From a phage: a DNA stretch of 64,000 nt. Positions 8,600 through 64,000 of the stretch are shown piece after piece. Under the pieces are notes generated by a model. That model saw only the letters and a list, made by a program, of their open reading frames with translations, searched no databases and was not told where the DNA came from. How positions within the stretch are numbered: position 1 is the first letter of the stretch; every line of letters starts with the position of its first letter. The stretch lies in sequence record PX670417.1; one strand, given 5' to 3'. A program made the position numbers and the translations under genes.

Positions 8600-8628
8600 A
8601 TTCTAGTTTGTTGATACTCTATTGTCAA
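8600..8628 (-). promoter_or_regulatory. sigma70-like promoter TTGACA-17-TAGAAT upstream of SSB gene
   Basis: Minus-strand TTGACA (8623-8628) and TAGAAT (8600-8605) with 17-bp spacer, about 40 nt upstream of start at 8563. Confidence 0.5.
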
Positions 8629-12842: not shown

Positions 12843-13265
12843 TTATTTCTCTCTCAGTTGGTTAAGTTTCTTTCTAGAACATTTTAAGTTTTCTGATGAA
12901 GAAAAGTCAAGTGTCTTTTCAGAACGTGGATAGTAATGTCTATCCCAAGAAGTTTCAACATCGTTAATCAGTGACGCTAGATTACACAGGTCTGTACCAC
13001 TTTGCAACCTCTTTTTAAGAGAATCTAGTAAAGCAACTGTGTCTTTAGCTTTACGTCTCGCTGTAGCAACATCTTTCATATGCTCAAATACAGAGCATTT
13101 TAAGTCATCTTCATAGTTTTCAGACAACTCTATCTCATGTTGTATATCAACCATTCTCCTGTGATGGTGAGCATATTCCCGTTGAGCAGCAATGTCAAGT
13201 TCTTCCAACTTCTGCAAAGCTCTAACAAAGTCAGCTATGTCTGGGTGAACAAACATTTTCTGCAT
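12843..13265 (-). CDS. hypothetical protein
   Basis: ORF track 140 aa; first gene of the minus-strand early block. Confidence 0.5.
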   Translation of the reverse strand: MQKMFVHPDIADFVRALQKLEELDIAAQREYAHHHRRMVDIQHEIELSENYEDDLKCSVFEHMKDVATARRKAKDTVALLDSLKKRLQSGTDLCNLASLINDVETSWDRHYYPRSEKTLDFSSSENLKCSRKKLNQLREK

Positions 13266-13439
13266 GTAAGCCTCTTTTAAGTAACTATTAAGTTTTAATC
13301 TTTTATCTTAACGTATTCTATACGTTATACTTTAAAGCTTTTTAAAAGCTATTAAATAATCTTTTAAGAGTTTTAAAGTATCTGTATAGTTAAACTGTTA
13401 AGTAACCTTTTAAGTAAAAACCCACTTCGCAAAGATTAA

Positions 13440-13464
13440 CACCTTGTCAAGTGCATTGTCAACT
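13440..13464 (-). promoter_or_regulatory. tandem TTGACAA elements including 11-mer TTGACAAGGTG (minus strand) in divergent intergenic region
   Basis: Revcomp of 13440-13450 is TTGACAAGGTG; second GTTGACAA at revcomp 13456-13464; same 11-mer recurs at 16230 and 55714. Confidence 0.45.
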
Positions 13465-13523
13465 TGCTTTTTATAATTTTTTGCAGTAATGTATGAGGTT
13501 AATGGTTTTAGAGGGAGTAAAAA

Positions 13524-16223
13524 ATGGAAAACATAGATTTTAAAAACTTACATTTGGTTGGTGATACAGAGACTGATGGTTTACTCCTTGAGTTCACTAA
13601 AGTTCACGTAATGGCTTTTGCAGACTATAAATCTGACGATGAAGAGCCACCTGTATGGGTCTTTACAGATGAACCTATCCTCGGTCACAAGTATACCAAG
13701 TACATCAAGGGTGGCTTGCGTGAAGGTGTTGAGTTTGCGTTAAAGGCAAAACGTCTTTGCATCCACAATGGTCTGGGGTATGACTGGTGGGTTTTCAATC
13801 ACATTGCACCTGATTTGTGGAACTTTGATAATCCAAAGTGTAAGCCGTGGAGTAATTTCTTTCAGGATTCTCTTATCCAGTCTCGTGTTCAGTGGATGGA
13901 TAGACCAACTCCAAAGGGCTACAAAGGTGCTCATGGCTTGGCAGCATGGGGTGCTCGTGTTGGTGTCCGTAAACCAGAGATTGAACATTGGGGTGTGTGG
14001 AATGCAGAAATCTTCACTCGTGTTGTGGAAGATATCCGTATTAACGCCAAAACTAAACGTGCACTGGATAATGAATATCTGAAGTTAAAGAAGTGTGGCG
14101 TAGACACCTATGAAACTTACATGCGAGCTAAAGAAACATCTTTCTGGATGAGTCAACAAGCTATCAATGGTTGGAAAGCTGATAAAGAGCTTATGGAGTT
14201 CCATGTAAAGGAACTTGACAAGTTGACTAATGAGCTTGCTTCAGAAGTTGAACCACATCTTCCTCCAACTATTAAGACTAAAGGTAAAGTCACTGGAGAA
14301 GAATTTGCAAAAGCTTGGAATGAGTATGTTGAAACATTTGGTCATGCAGATGGACTGAAGAGAATTACCAAGTACCCTAAGACAAAGTATCGTCAACAGG
14401 TACGTAACGGTGAGATGCAGACATATGAAATTAAACCATTTGGTAAGCCAACTACAAAGATTTTTAACATTGAAAAGCGGAATTGCTATACACCAACAAA
14501 CTCTGTAACTGGTGAAGAGTACAAGGAAGGCTTTGTAGCAATGAAGGATGCTCGTGCAATTTGCAATGAGTTGAATGCAAAGATTGGTAAGAAATGCAAA
14601 GACTGGAAGCCAGTAAAAACAGTTAAGACTGTGAAGTACTATAACAGTCATGTTGTTAACCACTTTGAACTTGAGTCAAGTCGCTACACAGGTTTGATTG
14701 ATGCGCCATATACACCAATTGAGTTCGAAGTTTCTCGTATGACTCAGGTAGCAGTTGTTAAAGACTACCTGAAATCAGTTGGTTGGATTCCAGATGACTG
14801 GAACTACAAGAAAGACTCGGATGGTCGTCCTGTCAAAGTTTGTCGTTTCAAAGACAACAAAAAGATGATTACAAAACATCCTAAGTGGCAGGAGATGGTG
14901 GAACGGTGTGGCTTGAGTTATGTTGAACACGAAGGTGTCCAGTACATTGAGCATAACTGGTCTGTGAAGAAGTACACAGATTTGCTTGAACCTTGCTTAA
15001 TCCGTACTTCACCAAAACTTACTGAATCATCTTATGATACGATTGAAGGTGAGCTTGGACAGAAGATTGCTAAGTACTATACTTTGATGCACAGACGCAG
15101 AACTATTGAGAACTCAAAGGATGATGAAAAAGGTTGGTTGAACCAGATTCGTCCTGATGGTCGCCTTAGTGCTGGTGCAATGGTGTTTGGTACTTCAACT
15201 GGACGTATGACACAATATGGTATTGTAAACGTACCGTCTGGTGCTGCTGTCTATGGGGAACCAATGAGGGCAGTGTGGATTTGTGAAGAAGGCACTAATG
15301 TTGTCTCTGTGGATATGAACTCAGCCCAGCTAGTTCTTCTTTGTAACTTTATGGGTGACAAAGACTTCACCAAAGCGGTAACACAAGGTAAAGAAGAGAT
15401 TGAGTTTATTCGTCAAGAAGATGGACGCTATTACTGCAAACACTTTGATGAGTACCTCAACCCAGAGATTGATAAGTACCTTCGCTATGACTCTGAGAAT
15501 GACCTTTACGTTGTCTATTCAGGGACTGATGCACACACACTGAACAGTATTTACTTTAGCTTGAATGATGAGCAGGACATCTTGACTTGTCGAGCTACTC
15601 AGGATGAGAACCTTCTACACGAGATTAGTAAGGGTCGTAAGAAAGCTAAGAATGGTATCTATGCACTGCTGTTCGGTGCAGGTGATGAGAAGTTTGCTAA
15701 GACGATTAAAGCTGCAACTACTCAGGAAGGCGCACTGACTAAACAGACTTACTTTATTCGTTTGCCTAAAATTAAGAAACTGCTAGATGACTTGGAAGCT
15801 GACTACAAAGCGATTAAAAAGGCACTTGAAGAGGTGTTTGGTAAGACTGCTGCAATCTCTAAAGGGGGTTTTGTAAAGGTTGCTGGAGCTTGGTTGTGGT
15901 GTAAATCTCCACACAAACTGTTGAACTATCTTTTGATGGGTTCAGAGGCGCAGATTCAAAATGAGGCAATTAACCTTGCTTGTCGTCGTATGATTGACGA
16001 AGGTTTGATGAAGTTGAATGGTCGTCAACCAGCTATTGGTGCTCGTTTGCTCTGCGCATATCACGATGAGACGAGTTGGGAATGTCCAGAAAGTATGACG
16101 GCAGAGGTGAAAGCTGTTACTGACTGGTATTATGGACAAGCTTCTAAGAACTTAGGTCTTAAGAAAGAAACGCTTGTTACAGGTACTGGTAAGGTTGGTA
16201 AAAGCTGGTATGAGGTACACTAA
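13524..16223 (+). CDS. DNA polymerase, family A (with 3'-5' exonuclease domain)
   Basis: 899 aa; Exo I-like DTETDGL near N-terminus; motif B-like KKAKNGIYALLFGAG; motif C-like YHDE. Confidence 0.9.
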   Translation: MENIDFKNLHLVGDTETDGLLLEFTKVHVMAFADYKSDDEEPPVWVFTDEPILGHKYTKYIKGGLREGVEFALKAKRLCIHNGLGYDWWVFNHIAPDLWNFDNPKCKPWSNFFQDSLIQSRVQWMDRPTPKGYKGAHGLAAWGARVGVRKPEIEHWGVWNAEIFTRVVEDIRINAKTKRALDNEYLKLKKCGVDTYETYMRAKETSFWMSQQAINGWKADKELMEFHVKELDKLTNELASEVEPHLPPTIKTKGKVTGEEFAKAWNEYVETFGHADGLKRITKYPKTKYRQQVRNGEMQTYEIKPFGKPTTKIFNIEKRNCYTPTNSVTGEEYKEGFVAMKDARAICNELNAKIGKKCKDWKPVKTVKTVKYYNSHVVNHFELESSRYTGLIDAPYTPIEFEVSRMTQVAVVKDYLKSVGWIPDDWNYKKDSDGRPVKVCRFKDNKKMITKHPKWQEMVERCGLSYVEHEGVQYIEHNWSVKKYTDLLEPCLIRTSPKLTESSYDTIEGELGQKIAKYYTLMHRRRTIENSKDDEKGWLNQIRPDGRLSAGAMVFGTSTGRMTQYGIVNVPSGAAVYGEPMRAVWICEEGTNVVSVDMNSAQLVLLCNFMGDKDFTKAVTQGKEEIEFIRQEDGRYYCKHFDEYLNPEIDKYLRYDSENDLYVVYSGTDAHTLNSIYFSLNDEQDILTCRATQDENLLHEISKGRKKAKNGIYALLFGAGDEKFAKTIKAATTQEGALTKQTYFIRLPKIKKLLDDLEADYKAIKKALEEVFGKTAAISKGGFVKVAGAWLWCKSPHKLLNYLLMGSEAQIQNEAINLACRRMIDEGLMKLNGRQPAIGARLLCAYHDETSWECPESMTAEVKAVTDWYYGQASKNLGLKKETLVTGTGKVGKSWYEVH

Positions 16224-16229
16224 TTAGTA

Positions 16230-16259
16230 TTGACAAGGTGCTCATGGAAGAGTACCTTA
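16230..16259 (+). promoter_or_regulatory. promoter-like element starting with TTGACAAGGTG
   Basis: TTGACA at 16230-16235, 17-bp spacer, TACCTT; directly upstream of gene at 16285. Confidence 0.45.
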
Positions 16260-16284
16260 TACAATATCTTATATAGGAGGGCTT

Positions 16285-16494
16285 ATGAGCCACCGTGGAA
16301 GAACCCATGCAGCGATGATGAAAGGTGCTTCAAAGGAAACTATCAAGAACCGTAAGCAGAAGTTGTTTGAGAGGATGAACAGACTAATTGACAATTCATC
16401 TCTTTCAGGTTCTGAGAAGGTTTTCTTGAAAGGTAACCTGAAAAGCATTGCACAAGAGCTTATTGATATTGAATATTGGAGACACCAAAAATGA
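16285..16494 (+). CDS. hypothetical protein
   Basis: ORF track 69 aa; RBS TAGGAGGG upstream. Confidence 0.45.
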   Translation: MSHRGRTHAAMMKGASKETIKNRKQKLFERMNRLIDNSSLSGSEKVFLKGNLKSIAQELIDIEYWRHQK

Positions 16495-17560: not shown

Positions 17561-18635
17561 AGACGGCTCTTTTAACGTCTGGTCATGCGTTGCTGTAGGT
17601 GACAAAGTTGTTACAACCTACGGTAAAGAAAATGGCAAGATGATGTTTGAAGAGTATACAGCAGAACCTAAAAACATCGGTAAAAAGAATGAGCGTAACG
17701 CTGAACAGCAAGCTCTCTTTGAAGTTGCTGCTAAGTATAAAAAGCAAGTTGACCGCAAAGGTTATGCTTACACAAAAGAGTCTGCACATAACACTGAAAA
17801 GGTAGGTGTACAGCTTGCTCATGATGCTGCAAAAGTTAGTCATGCAAAGTATTTGATATTCCCTGCTGATGCTCAACCAAAACTTGATGGTGTTCGTTGT
17901 AGAATTTCAAGAGATGCTGATTCAGTTAGCTTCACGGCTTATTCTCGTGAAAATACTGTTTACAACGTCCCAGCAGAACTAATCCCAGATTTGCTTTTGT
18001 TGCTTAAATTGCATCCACAAGTCGAGGACTTTGATGGTGAGATTTATGCTCATGGCTGGGACTTAGAAGATATTGTATCTATGATTAAGAATGCTGACAA
18101 TCCAGACCGTCACCTTCTTAAATTCTACTGGTATGATATCTGTGACAATTCAAGAACTTGGCCTGAGCGTCGTGAAATTATTGATAGCTCACCCATTATT
18201 GAGCTTGGTGATACCTGTAGAGTAGTTCCTGTACAGACTATCCGTGTTAACTCTTGGGAAGAGTTTGATGAAGCTCATGATAAGTGGGTTGAAGCTAAGT
18301 TTGAAGGTGCAATGTACCGTTCAATCTCTGAAGATTCCTTCTACGAGTGTTGTCACCGTTCATACTTCTTGATTAAACATAAGAAGATGCACACTGAAGA
18401 GTTTAAAGTGACTGGTGTCAAGACCGATAAACGTGGTCATGGTAAGTTCGTTGTAGAGACTCTTCCTAACGTCTTTGTAGATGTCTCATGGAAGACTACT
18501 CATGAGAAGAAACAGTATCTTGCTGAACATCCTGAAGAGTTTATCGGGAAGCCTTTAACGGTTCAGTTCCAGAAGATGACTCGTAAGGGTTCTTTGCAGT
18601 TCCCTGTTGGGTTAGTCATACGAGATTATGAATAA
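17535..18635 (+). CDS. ATP-dependent DNA ligase
   Basis: Motif I KLDGVR (adenylation lysine); start set to ATG 17535 with GAGG RBS. Confidence 0.75.
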   Translation: MTILYKQNKDGSFNVWSCVAVGDKVVTTYGKENGKMMFEEYTAEPKNIGKKNERNAEQQALFEVAAKYKKQVDRKGYAYTKESAHNTEKVGVQLAHDAAKVSHAKYLIFPADAQPKLDGVRCRISRDADSVSFTAYSRENTVYNVPAELIPDLLLLLKLHPQVEDFDGEIYAHGWDLEDIVSMIKNADNPDRHLLKFYWYDICDNSRTWPERREIIDSSPIIELGDTCRVVPVQTIRVNSWEEFDEAHDKWVEAKFEGAMYRSISEDSFYECCHRSYFLIKHKKMHTEEFKVTGVKTDKRGHGKFVVETLPNVFVDVSWKTTHEKKQYLAEHPEEFIGKPLTVQFQKMTRKGSLQFPVGLVIRDYE

Positions 18636-18641
18636 AAGTTG

Positions 18642-18669
18642 TTGACATAGAAAATTTGGTGAGTATACT
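18642..18669 (+). promoter_or_regulatory. sigma70-like promoter TTGACA-16-TATACT
   Basis: TTGACA 18642-18647, TATACT 18664-18669; transcript would run through repeat region R1. Confidence 0.55.
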
Positions 18670-18699
18670 GAGCAGCATAAACCAACGGGTACTCACCAG

Positions 18700-18738
18700 C
18701 ATCACTTAAGAGTCTTTGAAAAGGGTTTTTAAGTGATG
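18700..18738 (+). other. long hairpin (10-bp stem CATCACTTAA / TTAAGTGATG), copy 1
   Basis: Perfect 10-bp inverted repeat with 19-nt loop; second copy at 20224-20262. Confidence 0.5.
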
Positions 18739-18749
18739 TGTAGCTCGGT

Positions 18750-18815
18750 CAGGTATGGTGCGGTGGTGTAAGGTGGTGTCAGGTGTAGTATGGTGCGGTG
18801 AGGTTCGGTATGGGT
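18750..18815 (+). repeat. GGT-rich degenerate short tandem repeat tract (R1a)
   Basis: ggtatggtgcggtggtgtaaggtggtgtcaggtgtagtatggtgcggtgaggttcggtatggg; 5-6 nt periodicity. Confidence 0.6.
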
Positions 18816-18819
18816 AGTT

Positions 18820-18852
18820 AGTCTCAGCTACATTAAAATGAGACTTATCTTT
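18820..18852 (+). other. conserved hairpin AGTCTCA-gctacattaaaa-TGAGACT followed by T-run (terminator-like), copy 1
   Basis: 7-bp stem; near-identical copy at 20329-20353; variant copy at 20197-20222 keeps pairing through compensatory changes. Confidence 0.55.
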
Positions 18853-18885
18853 TTAAAAGGTCTTTAAGAGGGTCTTTTAATAAGG

Positions 18886-18950
18886 TGTGGTAGGGTTAGG
18901 TGGAGTTGGGTATGGTGTGGTGTGGCACGGTGTGGGTGGATGGTAGTAGC
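18886..18950 (+). repeat. GGT-rich degenerate short tandem repeat tract (R1b)
   Basis: gtggtagggttaggtggagttgggtatggtgtggtgtggcacggtgtgggtgg. Confidence 0.6.
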
Positions 18951-18951
18951 C

Positions 18952-18967
18952 ACGTTAAAAATCTACC
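18952..18967 (+). other. hairpin GGTAG-N6-CTACC; counterpart at 20457-20482 is GGCAG/CTGCC
   Basis: Stem differs from R2 copy by a compensatory T/A to C/G change. Confidence 0.45.
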
Positions 18968-19025
18968 AAGTTTCTAAAGAGTCTTCTGTTGAGGGTTCTT
19001 TACAAACAACTTAACAATCAACTAA

Positions 19026-19631
<606 letters not shown>

Positions 19632-20074: not shown

Positions 20075-20085
20075 GTTGACTAGGT

Positions 20086-20110
20086 AGCCTCTTCGGAGGC
20101 TCCTTTTTAA
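20086..20110 (+). terminator. rho-independent terminator (AGCCTC-ttcg-GAGGCT + T-run)
   Basis: Stem 20086-20101 then CCTTTTT; same hairpin sequence as terminator at 4456-4473 in opposite orientation. Confidence 0.65.
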
Positions 20111-20139
20111 AAGGTCTTTTAAGAGGGTCTTTTAATGAG

Positions 20140-20196
20140 GTAAGGTGCGGTCTGGCAAGGCATGGTATGGTTGGGTGAGGTGAGGTATGGGTAGTT
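20140..20196 (+). repeat. GGT-rich degenerate short tandem repeat tract (R2a)
   Basis: taaggtgcggtctggcaaggcatggtatggttgggtgaggtgaggtatggg. Confidence 0.6.
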
Positions 20197-20222
20197 AATC
20201 GGAGCTACATTAAAATTCGATT
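20197..20222 (+). other. variant hairpin AATCGGA-gctacattaaaa-TTCGATT
   Basis: Same loop as 18820 and 20329 hairpins but different stem sequence that still pairs (three compensatory differences incl. one G-T wobble). Confidence 0.55.
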
Positions 20223-20223
20223 A

Positions 20224-20262
20224 CATCACTTAAGAGTCTTCTAAGAGGGTTTTTAAGTGATG
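20224..20262 (+). other. long hairpin (10-bp stem CATCACTTAA / TTAAGTGATG), copy 2
   Basis: Same stem as 18700-18738; loop differs at a few positions. Confidence 0.5.
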
Positions 20263-20264
20263 TT

Positions 20265-20328
20265 CGGTAGGGTCTGGTAGGGTAAGGTCTGGTCTGGTAG
20301 GGTCTGGTAGGGTGAGGTATGGGTAGTT
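20265..20328 (+). repeat. GGT-rich degenerate short tandem repeat tract (R2b)
   Basis: gttcggtagggtctggtagggtaaggtctggtctggtagggtctggtagggtgaggtatggg. Confidence 0.6.
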
Positions 20329-20360
20329 AGTCTCAGCTACATTAAAATGAGACTTACCTT
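20329..20360 (+). other. conserved hairpin AGTCTCA-gctacattaaaa-TGAGACT followed by T-run, copy 2
   Basis: Near-identical to 18820-18852 including flanks (about 80 nt direct repeat 18806-18888 vs 20318-20399). Confidence 0.55.
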
Positions 20361-20394
20361 TTTAAAAGGTCTTTAAACAGGGTGTTTTAATAAG

Positions 20395-20456
20395 GTGCTG
20401 TATGGTGGGGTAAGGTAGGGTTAGGCGAGGTCAGGTGAGGTTTGGTATGGAAGGAT
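20395..20456 (+). repeat. GGT-rich degenerate short tandem repeat tract (R2c)
   Basis: gtgctgtatggtggggtaaggtagggttaggcgaggtcaggtgaggtttggtatgg. Confidence 0.6.
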
Positions 20457-20501
20457 GGCAGTAGCCTTATAAAAAATCTGCCAAATAAGCTATAAAATCT
20501 G

Positions 20502-20530
20502 TTGACAAGTCAGGTGTTATAGCTTATTTT
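20502..20530 (+). promoter_or_regulatory. sigma70-like promoter GTTGACAAGT...TATTTT
   Basis: TTGACA 20502-20507, 17-bp spacer, TATTTT; about 45 nt upstream of gene at 20575. Confidence 0.45.
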
Positions 20531-20574
20531 TATACTCAACGTAATACAAAATTTAATATAACTTTGAGGTCATT

Positions 20575-20959: not shown

Positions 20960-21172
20960 ATGGCTCTTAAAAAGTTACATCCCAGAAGCGGCTATGGTAA
21001 GATAATTGATGATGCAGATGGCTTTACAGTCTTTACAGTTATCTGTCAAGATGATTCACAGATTGAAAAGGCTCTTGATGATTATCTTAATGATGAACGT
21101 GAAAAGGTTAGGGCTACAAACATAGATTCATTGATTGACACTTCACGTAAACGGAAGAAGAAAGATGAATGA
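20960..21172 (+). CDS. hypothetical protein
   Basis: ORF track 70 aa. Confidence 0.4.
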   Translation: MALKKLHPRSGYGKIIDDADGFTVFTVICQDDSQIEKALDDYLNDEREKVRATNIDSLIDTSRKRKKKDE

Positions 21173-21464
21173 GGTTTTTGACCCTTATGCTCCACAAGAT
21201 GATTGGGAGGCTGATAGAGAGGCTGAAATGGAGAGTTATATTTGTCCAATGGATGTAGACGAAATGAGAGACTTCGTTGCACATCGTTTTAAGAGAGAGA
21301 TTAAATCCAGAGGTCTTTCTCAAGAGCAAGTTGCTAAAATTTGTGGTATCTCTCAGGCTCGTGTATCCAACATAATCCACCTCACTGGTAATGTCTCCCT
21401 TGAGTATATGTTGGAAGTATGCGAAAAATTTGGTGTTAATTTTAATTTAAGGCTGGCAGATTAA
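21165..21464 (+). CDS. helix-turn-helix (XRE-like) DNA-binding protein
   Basis: LSQEQVAKICGISQARVSNII matches HTH pattern; start moved to internal ATG 21165. Confidence 0.5.
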   Translation: MNEVFDPYAPQDDWEADREAEMESYICPMDVDEMRDFVAHRFKREIKSRGLSQEQVAKICGISQARVSNIIHLTGNVSLEYMLEVCEKFGVNFNLRLAD

Positions 21465-27107: not shown

Positions 27108-27130
27108 CTTAAAAGGGGCTATAAAGCCCC
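27108..27130 (-). terminator. hairpin GGGGCT-ataa-AGCCCC with U-run between the two fiber genes (terminator/attenuator)
   Basis: Minus-sense hairpin followed by UUUUAAGAGG then ATG of downstream fiber gene. Confidence 0.45.
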
Positions 27131-27140
27131 TGTAAAGAAA

Positions 27141-62818: not shown

Positions 62819-62827
62819 AATATCTTA

Positions 62828-62860
62828 AGAGCCTCCTTAATTGGGGGCTTTTTAATTTTT
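62828..62860 (+). terminator. rho-independent terminator (AGCCTCC-ttaatt-GGGGGCT + T-rich)
   Basis: 7-bp stem with one G-U pair then TTTTTAATTTTT; last gene before non-coding repeat region. Confidence 0.55.
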
Positions 62861-62948
62861 ATAAAATTTTATCGGTTGTCCCAACCTCTGGGTCACCATC
62901 ATATGTGAATAAAATATCTACCCTTCTTAACAACCTTCTTAAGCTTAC

Positions 62949-63001
62949 TCTCTATATATATAGTTATATAGTACTATATAGTATCTTAGTATCTATCTAG
63001 T
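62949..63001. repeat. AT-rich TATATAG/TATAGTA repeat cluster (DNA-unwinding-element-like)
   Basis: ctctatatatatagttatatagtactatatagtatcttagtatctatctag. Confidence 0.5.
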
Positions 63002-63014
63002 GGTCTTAATAGCC

Positions 63015-64000
63015 CCTCTGTATAACCCTTCTAAACACTCTTCTAACAAGCCTTCTTAACAACCTATACAATCACCTTAACCATCCCTCTACACCCTCTT
63101 AGAAGCCCCTATACACCTCTTAATCTCTATGTCAGCTATGTTACCCTCTATAGGTGTTCACTAGGTATTACTAAGCCTCTATATAGACTGTTTTAACAAA
63201 CTTAACAGGAATATCTTTACAGACCTTATCTCACAAGGTCTAACACGGTACTAACAAGGTATCTTATAAGCCTGTTTATGCCTGTATTTTTAAAAGACTG
63301 TCTAGGTAATTATTCAGAATTTTAAAATTTTTATAAAATAGGATTATCAAGTCATTTTTTAGGGTCTTTGAAGGAACTCAAAAATATCTGTAGAAGATGT
63401 ATATCTGCTTGGTAGCCCTTAACAGCCCTGTAACATCCCCTTTGCAGAATTTTAAAATATCATTAACAATCTCTTAACAGTTATTACATCTTCTTAACAT
63501 CTCTTCAGAGGTCTTAACAGATTTTTAACAGAACTAACAAGGGTTTAACAGTTTTCTAACAAGTGCTGAATAGTCTTTACAGATGATTAACAGATGACTA
63601 ACAAGAGCTAACAAGTTAATTTTTAAGAGTTATTTTGTTAAGATAATTAACAAGTTTCTAACAAGTGTTTAATCTTTTTAACAAGCTATTAACATGGTCA
63701 CTATCTCTTTCTTATCGTTCCCTTTCCCTCTTAGTGATTCTTTAAATAGCCCTCTTAAAAGCTCTCTATAGCTCCTTGTAAGCTCTTTTTAGTCTCTTTC
63801 TAGTAATTACACCCCAACTATGTAGAAAGCTCTTTATAGGGCTTTACAGGGGCTTTAAAGACTATGTCAAAGACTCTTACAAGGCTTTTACATGGTTTTA
63901 ACAGAGATTTAACAAGGGGCTAACAAGTTGCTAACAAGTGTCTTAAAAGCATAACTATGTAGGGTTTGTTAAGAAATTGTTAAGAAAATGTTAAGGGGGC
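63015..64000. repeat. dense array of short TAACA(A/G) / CTAACAAG motifs (iteron-like), with inverted TGTTAAG copies at the end
   Basis: At least 25 copies of TTAACAG / CTAACAAG / TTAACAA over about 1 kb with no ORFs; densest 63460-63700 at roughly 10-12 bp spacing; CTTGTTAAGAAATTGTTAAGAAAATGTTAAG at 63966-63995. Confidence 0.6.

Follow-up and report, generated by a model that had tools for sequence, protein, structure and literature searches.

The phage DNA analyzed here (sequence record PX670417.1; 64,000 nucleotides, hereafter the window) is that of a Felixounavirus (Felix O1-like myophage) and is 95–99% identical to many Felix O1-like phages of Escherichia and Salmonella. We examined an 11-letter word, TTGACAAGGTG, and an exact search confirmed the observation of an earlier note that it occurs in exactly three copies, at 13440–13450 on the minus strand (site 1), at 16230–16240 on the plus strand (site 2), and at 55714–55724 on the minus strand (site 3). 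The three copies probably mark promoters that are read by host sigma-70, with the word providing the −35 element at site 2 and the proximal copy of a tandem −35 element at sites 1 and 3. The presence of promoters at the heads of transcription units, as proposed in the same note, is very probable for all three sites, which occupy the same positions across the subfamily Ounavirinae. As judged from its sequence, the 11-mer is the −35 consensus TTGACA (followed by a common A) with five neighboring bases and is not itself a recognition unit.

Letters 1 to 6 of TTGACAAGGTG are TTGACA, the −35 consensus for sigma-70, and all three copies are intergenic, are oriented toward the downstream gene, and each contain this consensus. 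The description of the recurrence as far above chance holds for a word named beforehand, for which the expected count was 0.04 and at least three copies were found in 0 of 100 shuffles. It does not hold for the count alone: between 38 and 60 different 11-mers reached at least three copies per simulated window in 20 first-order Markov simulations, and, given that about 50 different 11-mers do so by chance, copy number by itself is not significant. The probability that at least 3 of the 13 intergenic TTGACA sites have one common 5-nt extension was ~6e-4, and it was 0.10 when all ~70 TTGACA sites of the window were counted. With one or two mismatches, the word was barely enriched (39 matches versus 27 expected). 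The complete genome of the annotated relative Bas63, from which the gene map was read, also contains exactly three copies of TTGACAAGGTG and no others, all of them syntenic with those of the window, and the 24 kb beyond the window therefore adds no further copy. The recurrence of the word is made meaningful by its placement in promoter regions, its synteny, and its conservation, not by its count. A scan of IMG/VR with ACTTGACAAGGTGT was uninformative, yielding >120 matches mainly in unrelated contigs, with a 14-mer being too short for such a search; a literature search on the word itself returned nothing relevant, the sequence matches being primers.

The elements proposed at the three sites are listed below.

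13464–13472, minus strand: A-tract AAAAAGCAA of site 1, UP-element-like, adjoining the distal −35 and invariant across three genera
13457–13462, minus strand: distal TTGACA, proposed working −35 of site 1, invariant in relatives
13451–13456, minus strand: linker between the hexamers of site 1, with four hypervariable bases (13452–13455)
13440–13450, minus strand: copy 1 of the 11-mer, consisting of the proximal TTGACA (13450–13445) and AGGTG, in the spacer at about −24 to −14
13441–13440, minus strand: extended −10 TGn, the last TG of copy 1
13433–13438, minus strand: proposed −10 TAATCT of site 1, preceded by TGt (TAGTCT in phage Mordin)
13266–13426, minus strand: transcribed leader of site 1, with an array of CTTAAAAG/CTTAACAG/CTTTAAAG-type 8-mers and a hairpin at 13310–13326
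16230–16240, plus strand: copy 2 of the 11-mer, with TTGACA (16230–16235) as the −35 of an internal promoter before the gene at 16285
16253–16258, plus strand: proposed −10 TACCTT of site 2, N17 from TTGACA
55731–55736, minus strand: distal TTGACA, proposed working −35 of site 3, preceded by AAAAAAGTT (55738–55746)
55714–55724, minus strand: copy 3 of the 11-mer, consisting of the proximal TTGACA (55724–55719) and AGGTG, in the spacer at −23 to −13
55708–55713, minus strand: proposed −10 TAGGCT of site 3, N17 from the distal TTGACA
55587–55700, minus strand: leader of site 3, with CTTAAAAG-type motifs and a hairpin at 55635–55654

At site 2, the hexamer would be the working −35 of TTGACA-N17-TACCTT (score of 11.4 in an indicative position-weight scan), with a predicted transcription start at approximately 16264–16266 on the plus strand. 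At sites 1 and 3, the hexamer of the 11-mer would be the promoter-proximal member of a conserved tandem −35 pair with its members 12 bp apart, and the distal member, preceded by an A-tract, would pair with a weak −10 (TGtTAATCT at N18 for site 1 and TAGGCT at N17 for site 3). The 11-mer would then fill the spacer from about −24 to −13, with its terminal TG forming (site 1) or abutting (site 3) an extended −10, and starts are predicted on the minus strand at approximately 13427–13425 and 55702–55700, respectively. The two minus-strand copies had been placed in divergent intergenic regions, as is the case (13266–13523 for site 1 and 55587–55835 for site 3), and had been said to be followed about 12 bp later by a second hexamer-containing word. 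This word, GTTGACAA, is indeed present at both sites (13456–13463 and 55730–55737, minus strand), 12 bp from the 11-mer; on the motif's own strand it lies upstream (5′), not after it. Sites 1 and 3 share GTTGACAA-N3-ACTTGACAAGGTGT, followed 24 to 26 nt further on by ACTTAAAAGGTT, with the flanking AC...T also in common. The −10 regions differ among the three sites, as had been noted, with TAATCT, TACCTT, and TAGGCT being proposed here.

We infer from sequence which of the two hexamers is used, and we favor the distal register. The score for this register was 11.9 (N18 to TGtTAATCT) versus 2.8 at site 1, where the best proximal partners were GAAGTG and AAGTGG, and 11.4 (N17 to TAGGCT) versus 8.2 at site 3, where the proximal partners were AATACT (8.2) and TACTTA (5.8), the latter of which becomes CACTTA through a 1-nt insertion in Mooglevirus and Suspvirus. 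The distal register is also supported by the A-tract and the 13-mer AAAGTTGTTGACA, both of which abut the distal copy, by the use of the distal copy in the published Felix O1 promoter P41, and by distant Ounavirinae with one TTGACA. The hexamer located 17 or 18 bp from the distal copy keeps T1, A2, and T6 in all its forms (TAGGCT, TAGCCT, TAGTGT, and TAAGTT; TAATCT and TAGTCT; TAACTT and TAATGT). The −35 of site 2 and the two distal copies are followed at 16 to 18 bp by a TAnnnT hexamer, but the proximal copies of sites 1 and 3 are not.

The predicted promoter P41 of Felix O1 corresponds to the site 3 locus and has the distal TTGACA as its −35; it differs from our model in that this hexamer is paired with TATAGG at N15 (Whichard et al. 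2010; PMC3185647). Given that TATAGG is TGTAGG in most relatives, we favor TAGGCT at N17 as the −10 of P41 and would revise the published element to this sequence. No other recognizable promoter was reported for the 40–41 or 96–97 intergenic regions, no promoter was found in the DNA polymerase intergenic region, and temporal regulation was stated to be unknown (PMC3185647). Sites 1 and 2 and the tandem arrangement are therefore not described in that study, and sites 1 and 2 are new candidate promoters.

Regions of relatives were gathered from IMG/VR and GenBank and were anchored on flanking proteins. At site 1, AAAAAGCAAGTTGACAA and CTTGACAAGGTG were invariant in 17 unique sequences from three genera, whereas the linker showed seven alleles at four bases in the same sequences. 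Within Felixounavirus, 3 of the 4 linker columns vary, compared with 14 of 260 columns elsewhere in the region (Fisher p = 9e-4). At site 3, both TTGACA hexamers were invariant and all five linker columns varied among 14 unique sequences. The alleles of the −10 at this site were TAGGCT, TAGCCT, TAGTGT, and TAAGTT, with positions 1, 2, and 6, those that matter most in a −10 element, being fixed and the middle varying.

A third promoter with a doubled −35 was found outside the window at 69459–69487 of Bas63 (MZ501086.1) and has the form TTGACAA-N6-TTGACA-TTGG-TAACTT, with TTGACATTGG in place of the 11-mer. It possesses a perfect AAAAAAGTG A-tract and a leader opening with GGGGGTTTATCTAAAAGG, like the leader of site 1. 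Its hexamers were both invariant in 17 unique sequences, with a hypervariable linker and a −10 of TAACTT or TAATGT. Bas63 thus contains three tandem hexamer pairs compared with 0.10 expected, and both hexamers were unchanged in all 48 unique sequences (17, 14, and 17) at the three doubled promoters. The conservation is that of promoters, with fixed hexamers, a constant spacer length, and retention of −10 positions 1, 2, and 6; the one exception to the freedom of spacer sequence is the proximal hexamer, which is likewise fixed and, to judge from this pattern, is under purifying selection. The sequence anatomy, synteny, and conservation pattern of the three sites are direct observations.

These doubled promoters share an architecture consisting of an A-tract, TTGACA(A), a variable linker of 5 to 7 nt, TTGACA, 4 to 6 nt, TAnnnT, and a long leader with a CTTAAAAG-type array, which was found at sites 1 and 3 and at Bas63 69459 in Felixounavirus, Mooglevirus, and Suspvirus. 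The three leaders have an opening motif of the CTTAAAAGG or CTAAAAGG type followed by an array of CTTAAAAG-like 8-mers, and GGGTTT stands at the very start of the leader of site 1 and of Bas63 69459. The three promoters look like related cassettes, with their A-tract, doubled −35, weak −10, and leader array, and much of the letter-for-letter identity is therefore probably due to descent or gene conversion. Site 2 does not belong to this group, having a single hexamer, no A-tract, and a short leader. Its promoter is kept in Mooglevirus, and its position is occupied by TTGACA-N17-TATCTT in Kolesnikvirus and phage PMBT37 and by TTGACT-N16-TACAAT in phage Wc4-1. At sites 1 and 3, distant Ounavirinae (Wc4-1, FIfi106, PMBT37, and phiEa21-4) carry only one TTGACA, at N16–18 from TAGGCT, TACATT, TACCCT, or TAGAAT; at site 1 it takes the form of a single CTTGACA-N17-TACATT or -TAGGCT.

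The first leader motif is ACTTAAAAGGTT at both 13405–13416 and 55677–55688 (minus strand) in Felixounavirus; its counterpart in Mooglevirus and Suspvirus, again at both sites, is CTTAA(A/T)AGACT. The occurrence of the same two substitutions in both leaders suggests gene conversion or co-evolution with a common reader.

In related phages, the exact word is retained in the three syntenic copies of Bas63, and its extension varies at site 3. In the 14 unique site 3 sequences, TTGACAA is invariant and letters 8 and 9 are GG, GA, CG, or GC; the letters following TTGAC are AAGATG, AACGTG, or AAGCTG in Mooglevirus and Suspvirus and AAGGTA in Felix O1 itself, in which the site reads TTGACAAGGTA with A as letter 11. 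One variant of site 2 is TTGACAGGGTG, with letter 7 changed. The 11-mer is thus not a unit, given that letters 8, 9, and 11 vary at site 3 and letter 7 in one site 2 sequence and that TTGG follows the hexamer at the third doubled promoter. The three sites also differ among themselves in a single Mooglevirus genome.

In the model that we consider probable, the 11-letter identity would result from selection on TTGACAA, selection on TG by the −10, and descent or gene conversion among promoter-leader cassettes. The proximal hexamer would offer sigma-70 region 4 a further docking site, auxiliary or competing, that tunes recruitment of the polymerase at promoters with a weak −10. Region 4 is the most likely reader, given that its exact consensus is the only sequence common to the three tandem promoters.

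The surrounding sequence is consistent with recognition by the host polymerase. About a dozen intergenic TTGACA-N16–18-TAnnnT promoters with AT-rich upstream tracts are present in the window, examples being those at 8628, 8967, 18642, 20502, 51753, 53608, 53699, 55202, and 60632. The −35 matches TTGACA in 6 of 6 positions at 16230, 13462/13450, and 55736/55724. In the position-weight scan, the three sites scored 11.4 to 11.9, compared with 11.6 to 14.2 for the canonical promoter set, and a score of at least 10 was reached at only 57 of ~128,000 positions. The 13-mer AAAGTTGTTGACA, comprising the A-tract and −35, occurs exactly at 18635–18647 (plus), 51738–51750 (minus), and 55731–55743 (minus), and two of these three promoters (18635 and 51750) are canonical with a strong −10 (TATACT and TATAGT); this 13-mer provides a second example of promoter identity that reaches beyond the hexamer. 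The site 1 A-tract resembles the proximal subsite consensus of UP elements, AAAAAARNR. In comparison with Escherichia coli sigma-70 promoters (TTGACA-N17-TATAAT), the phage sites are the same with regard to the perfect −35, spacers of 17 to 18 bp, TAnnnT, the adjoining A-tract, TGn before the −10 at site 1, and correct orientation upstream of a gene; they differ in having a second invariant −35 in the spacer (sites 1 and 3 and the third promoter) and a weak −10.

The suggestion in the earlier note of a phage-specific promoter class defined by the extended 11-mer was not borne out. The core of the word is the host −35 consensus used by the dozen or so other promoters of the window, the 5-nt extension is not kept as a unit, and the job of the word differs between sites. 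No extended motif distinct from the host consensus was kept at all members and their relatives. The 161 annotated features of Bas63 include no phage RNA polymerase, sigma factor, or specificity factor, and the Felix O1 genome paper states that the phage has none (PMC3185647); a Pfam scan covered a subset of window open reading frames (ORFs), so that small unrecognized factors may exist.

Several points weigh against promoters of the proposed type. All three −10 elements are weak, matching the consensus at 3 of 6 positions, and it is for this reason that a simple consensus scan missed all three sites. The scores of the position weight matrix are indicative only. At site 3, the terminal TG of the 11-mer abuts the −10 and is displaced by one base from the canonical place of an extended −10. 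The single −35 found at site 3 of Pectobacterium phage Wc4-1 is CTTGACAGGTG, hinting that the proximal copy rather than the distal one may be the ancestral −35. The AGGTG common to site 2 and sites 1 and 3 (p ~6e-4 among intergenic promoters) is explained by descent only, and a conserved −35 hexamer of consensus sequence that serves as a docking site within a promoter spacer is, to our knowledge, without precedent. Our literature search found no mapped transcription starts or transcriptome data for Felixounavirus. In addition, a PhageMaP preprint that includes Bas63 gives no promoter data for this phage, and a table of BPROM promoters for phage UAB_Phi87 lists none of the three sites according to our own coordinate mapping.

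An alternative that we regard as rather unlikely is that the proximal (C)TTGACAAG is an operator bound by a phage protein, which would block or remodel polymerase binding and in this way set the timing of the two large operons; the element bound at site 2 would be the −35 itself. In the window, a single candidate for a trans-acting reader of the proximal hexamer was found, a putative one encoded as follows.

21165–21464, plus strand: gene for a 99-aa Cro/CI-type (HTH_3, XRE family) protein; Pfam HTH_3, E = 6e-10; PHROG transcriptional regulator

Such binding would account for the retention of the proximal hexamer inside the spacer, where sigma does not need it, and for the location of the motif at the heads of the main transcription units. 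CTTGaCAAG forms a 9-bp dyad, but this dyad is short and is largely a consequence of TTGACAA; no dyad of 14 to 20 bp conserved in both halves was found at the sites, and site 2 lacks the left C. The left flank (the CA of CACTTG) varies even within the genus, letters 8, 9, and 11 of site 3 vary without co-variation with sites 1 and 2 of the same genome, and the third tandem promoter shares TTGACA only. Matches to the helix-turn-helix protein in tblastn searches were confined to Felixounavirus, Mooglevirus, and Suspvirus, the genera with tandem hexamers, and in Wc4-1, a phage with single hexamers, the syntenic ORFs include no helix-turn-helix protein. This co-occurrence is confounded by phylogeny, however, given that many genes show the same distribution. 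A look-alike of the motif in the regulator's own promoter (20502) is not kept in Mordin.

End-point reverse transcription–polymerase chain reaction (RT-PCR) data for Felix O1 place ORF95 (site 2) at 5 min and ORFs 41 and 42 (site 3) and 96 to 98 (97 and 98 being site 1) at 25 min. Both operons with a tandem promoter therefore belong to the 25-min class and the gene behind site 2 to the 5-min class, in line with an operator, and the timing is compatible with some delay at the doubled promoters, although it is too coarse to weigh. In view of these crude data, the description of the sites as early promoters is uncertain.

Two related candidates were discarded: a longer palindrome around the 11-mer, CACyT-N4-ArGTG, whose left half varies within the genus, and an autoregulatory site at the promoter of the helix-turn-helix operon (20502, TTGACAAGtcAGGTGT), which is not kept in Mordin.

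It is improbable that the proximal hexamer is a functionless relic of a 12- to 13-bp duplication of the −35 that was spread by recombination, with the identity of the 11-mer reflecting common descent. The resemblance of sites 1 and 3 and the third promoter, which have in common the A-tract, both hexamers, a leader start of GGGTTT...CTAAAAGG, and CTTAAAAG-type arrays, is as expected from such a history, as is the parallel change of the first leader motif (GGTT to GACT) at sites 1 and 3 between genera, which suggests gene conversion. Saturation of the linker with substitutions next to hexamers that are unchanged in 48 unique sequences is, however, difficult to reconcile with neutrality, and after a simple duplication the copy found at N17 from the old −10 would be the proximal rather than the distal one.

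Even less credible is the original model in which TTGACAAGGTG is an extended −35 of one promoter class whose hexamer works at all three sites. Three exact copies do face downstream genes, the hexamer is the −35 at site 2, and Wc4-1 has TTGACAGGTG as a single −35 at site 3. Site 1 lacks a usable −10 at N15–19, however, with GAAGTG/AAGTGG (score of 2.8) being invariant in three genera; the site 3 candidate TACTTA is lost in Mooglevirus and Suspvirus; GGGGGT is present at the corresponding distance in the third tandem promoter; and the extension is not conserved. Finally, membership of the word in a family of short non-coding motifs (YTAACAAG(G) and CTTAAAAG(G)) bound by the same array-binding factor is very unlikely: although TTGACAAGGT is one base from units such as CTAACAAGGT and TTAACAAGGG at 63251 and 63909 and CTTAAAAG-type arrays lie behind all three tandem promoters, the base that differs is the invariant G of the −35, an AAGG tail is missing from the third tandem promoter, the leader units are 8-mers of a different register, and no factor was identified.

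Three further candidate readings of the promoter regions were rejected. If TTGTCAAG is read on the plus strand as a −35 for the divergent genes, TATAAT at 13472–13477 lies at 10 and 22 bp, this hexamer is not kept in other genera, and the divergent promoters are better explained by TTGCTT-N17-TAATGT and TTGACT-N17-TACCAT. A T4 MotA-box reading of CTTGCTTTT is incompatible with the spacing of such boxes to the −10. A T4-type late promoter reading of TATAAATA at site 3 was dismissed because the sequence is TAATAAAA in Mooglevirus and Suspvirus.

The elements of the divergent DNA polymerase promoter are proposed as follows.

13464–13469, plus strand: −35 TTGCTT, the same bases as the site 1 A-tract
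13487–13492, plus strand: −10 TAATGT, giving TTGCTT-N17-TAATGT

In relatives, the −10 of this candidate (13464–13492) is always at N17 and keeps TAnnGT (TAGGGT in Mordin, TAGTGT in Silverhawkium, and TAATGT in PC79-13); it is TAGGGT or TAGTGT in Mooglevirus, with the spacer being fixed in length and free in sequence. Opposite site 3, TTGACT-N17-TACCAT at 55762–55790 (plus) is a candidate promoter for the divergent plus-strand unit and is invariant in relatives.

With regard to the genes served, site 1 heads a leftward operon (first ATG at 13265) that encodes two unknown proteins, dNMP kinase, primase/helicase, exonuclease, and ribonucleotide reductases, and it shares its divergent region with the DNA polymerase gene (13524–16223). 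Site 2 begins 7 nt past the stop of the DNA polymerase gene (16223) and 55 nt ahead of the ATG at 16285, and it heads a block of small genes, DNA ligase, the Cro/CI-type helix-turn-helix regulator, DHFR, and thymidylate synthase. Many relatives carry homing-endonuclease genes in the 16224–16284 region, inserted either immediately ahead of the site 2 promoter or in the interval that separates it from the downstream gene, and in relatives with such insertions the left edge of the conserved block is the site 2 TTGACA. Site 3 heads a leftward DUF5681 gene, a gene for a vWA-like protein, and the tRNA cluster, with structural genes beyond. The second gene behind site 3 (53718–55133, minus strand) encodes a DUF2828 and DUF7788 (vWA-like) protein that is labeled as an RNA-binding protein in RefSeq; immediately downstream of this gene is the cluster of 24 tRNA genes, for which separate consensus promoters are present at 53699, 53608, and 51753.

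Both leaders contain hairpins. That of site 1 (13310–13326, minus strand) is AACGTAT-aga-ATACGTT, with ATGTAT...ATACAT in Mordin being a compensatory change on both sides of the stem, and that of site 3 (55635–55654, minus strand) is AGATATC-tttctg-GATATCT and is invariant in all relatives. The 8-mers of the CTTAAAAG family (CTTAAAAG, CTTAACAG, CTTTAAAG, CTTTACAG, and CTTAATAG) are the most enriched non-coding words of the window, with CTTAAAAG occurring 11 times in 5.2 kb of intergenic DNA versus 9 times in 55.6 kb of coding DNA. They are located at 13274–13414 (minus), 55609–55687 (minus), 27108–27137, and 62819–64000 (plus). The arrays in the leaders behind sites 1 and 3 are sense-oriented with a period of ~10 to 14 nt, and arrays of the same kind are found in leaders of distant Ounavirinae. 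An Rfam search returned only tRNAs, with no match in the leaders.

Two other non-coding regions are rich in repeats. The region at 62819–64000 (plus), the last 1.2 kb of the window, corresponds to part of a gene-free gap of ~1.7 kb between convergent units in Bas63. It contains, mainly at 63043–63938, dense YTAACAAG and TTAACAG units on one strand, including 12 of the 22 YTAACAAG copies of the window; within clusters, YTAACAAG units recur every ~10 to 20 nt, and CTAACAAGGT is one base from the core of the 11-mer. This region looks like an iteron-type binding array, such as an origin, packaging, or partition-like site. The non-coding stretch at 20130–20470 is G/T-rich with a 5-nt GGTNN rhythm (GGTAGGGTCTGGTAGGGTAAGGTCTGGTCTGGTAGGG...) and is flanked by repeat blocks (18807–18887 and 20102–20390) common to the non-coding regions 18636–19043 and 20075–20574. 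The G/T-rich stretch contains many GGGTC and TGGTC sites, which match the recognition sites of T7-type primases, and the phage has a T7-like primase/helicase; the stretch may be related to replication.

Known systems resemble the doubled promoters in part. T4-type phages have repeated early-promoter cassettes (PeSL elements) with a defining stem-loop partner; the similarity lies in promoter repeats that reach well past the hexamers and stand at the heads of gene modules of a virulent myovirus, with recombination between copies being plausible, whereas the repeat described here is a tandem −35 with a leader array, and a stem-loop partner was not noticed, no search for one having been made. Lambda CII sites, like those of P22 C1, and the PhoB pho box, with TGTCA repeats every 11 bp, are direct repeats that straddle the −35. 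The phage sites share with them TTG-containing direct repeats about one helical turn apart in the −35 region; they differ in their period of 12 to 13 bp (not 10 to 11), in repeating a full −35 unit, and in a linker that is hypervariable and not AT-rich, and the orientation of TGTCA is opposite to that of the pho box. The phage is, moreover, virulent, and no CII- or PhoB-like protein turned up, although none was searched for. The C1 motif of P22 is TTGC-N6-TTGC (PMC4837284). Operators of Cro/CI-type repressors likewise provide a conserved element over the promoter core together with a small phage-encoded HTH_3 protein, but the phage sites lack an extended dyad, their flanks vary, and binding is only putative.

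The host-type promoter is an ordinary element, present here in a variant architecture for which we found no description, and the 11-mer itself is largely ordinary, being the −35 consensus with neighboring bases. Felix O1-like phages are widely used for typing and biocontrol of Salmonella and E. coli, and our analysis provides candidate host-type promoters with predicted starts for their replication operon, the block behind the DNA polymerase gene, and the tRNA and structural block. The doubled −35 offers a concrete and inexpensive experimental handle on temporal control in this group. We tentatively entertain, with low confidence, the notion that the proximal TTGACA(AG) is a regulatory element that times gene expression in Felix O1-like phages, acting either as an operator, for instance for the clade-restricted Cro/CI-type helix-turn-helix protein, or, in concert with the CTTAAAAG-type arrays of the leaders, as a docking site or decoy for sigma-70 region 4. 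If so, it would represent a previously undescribed way of controlling the host polymerase at promoters with a consensus −35.

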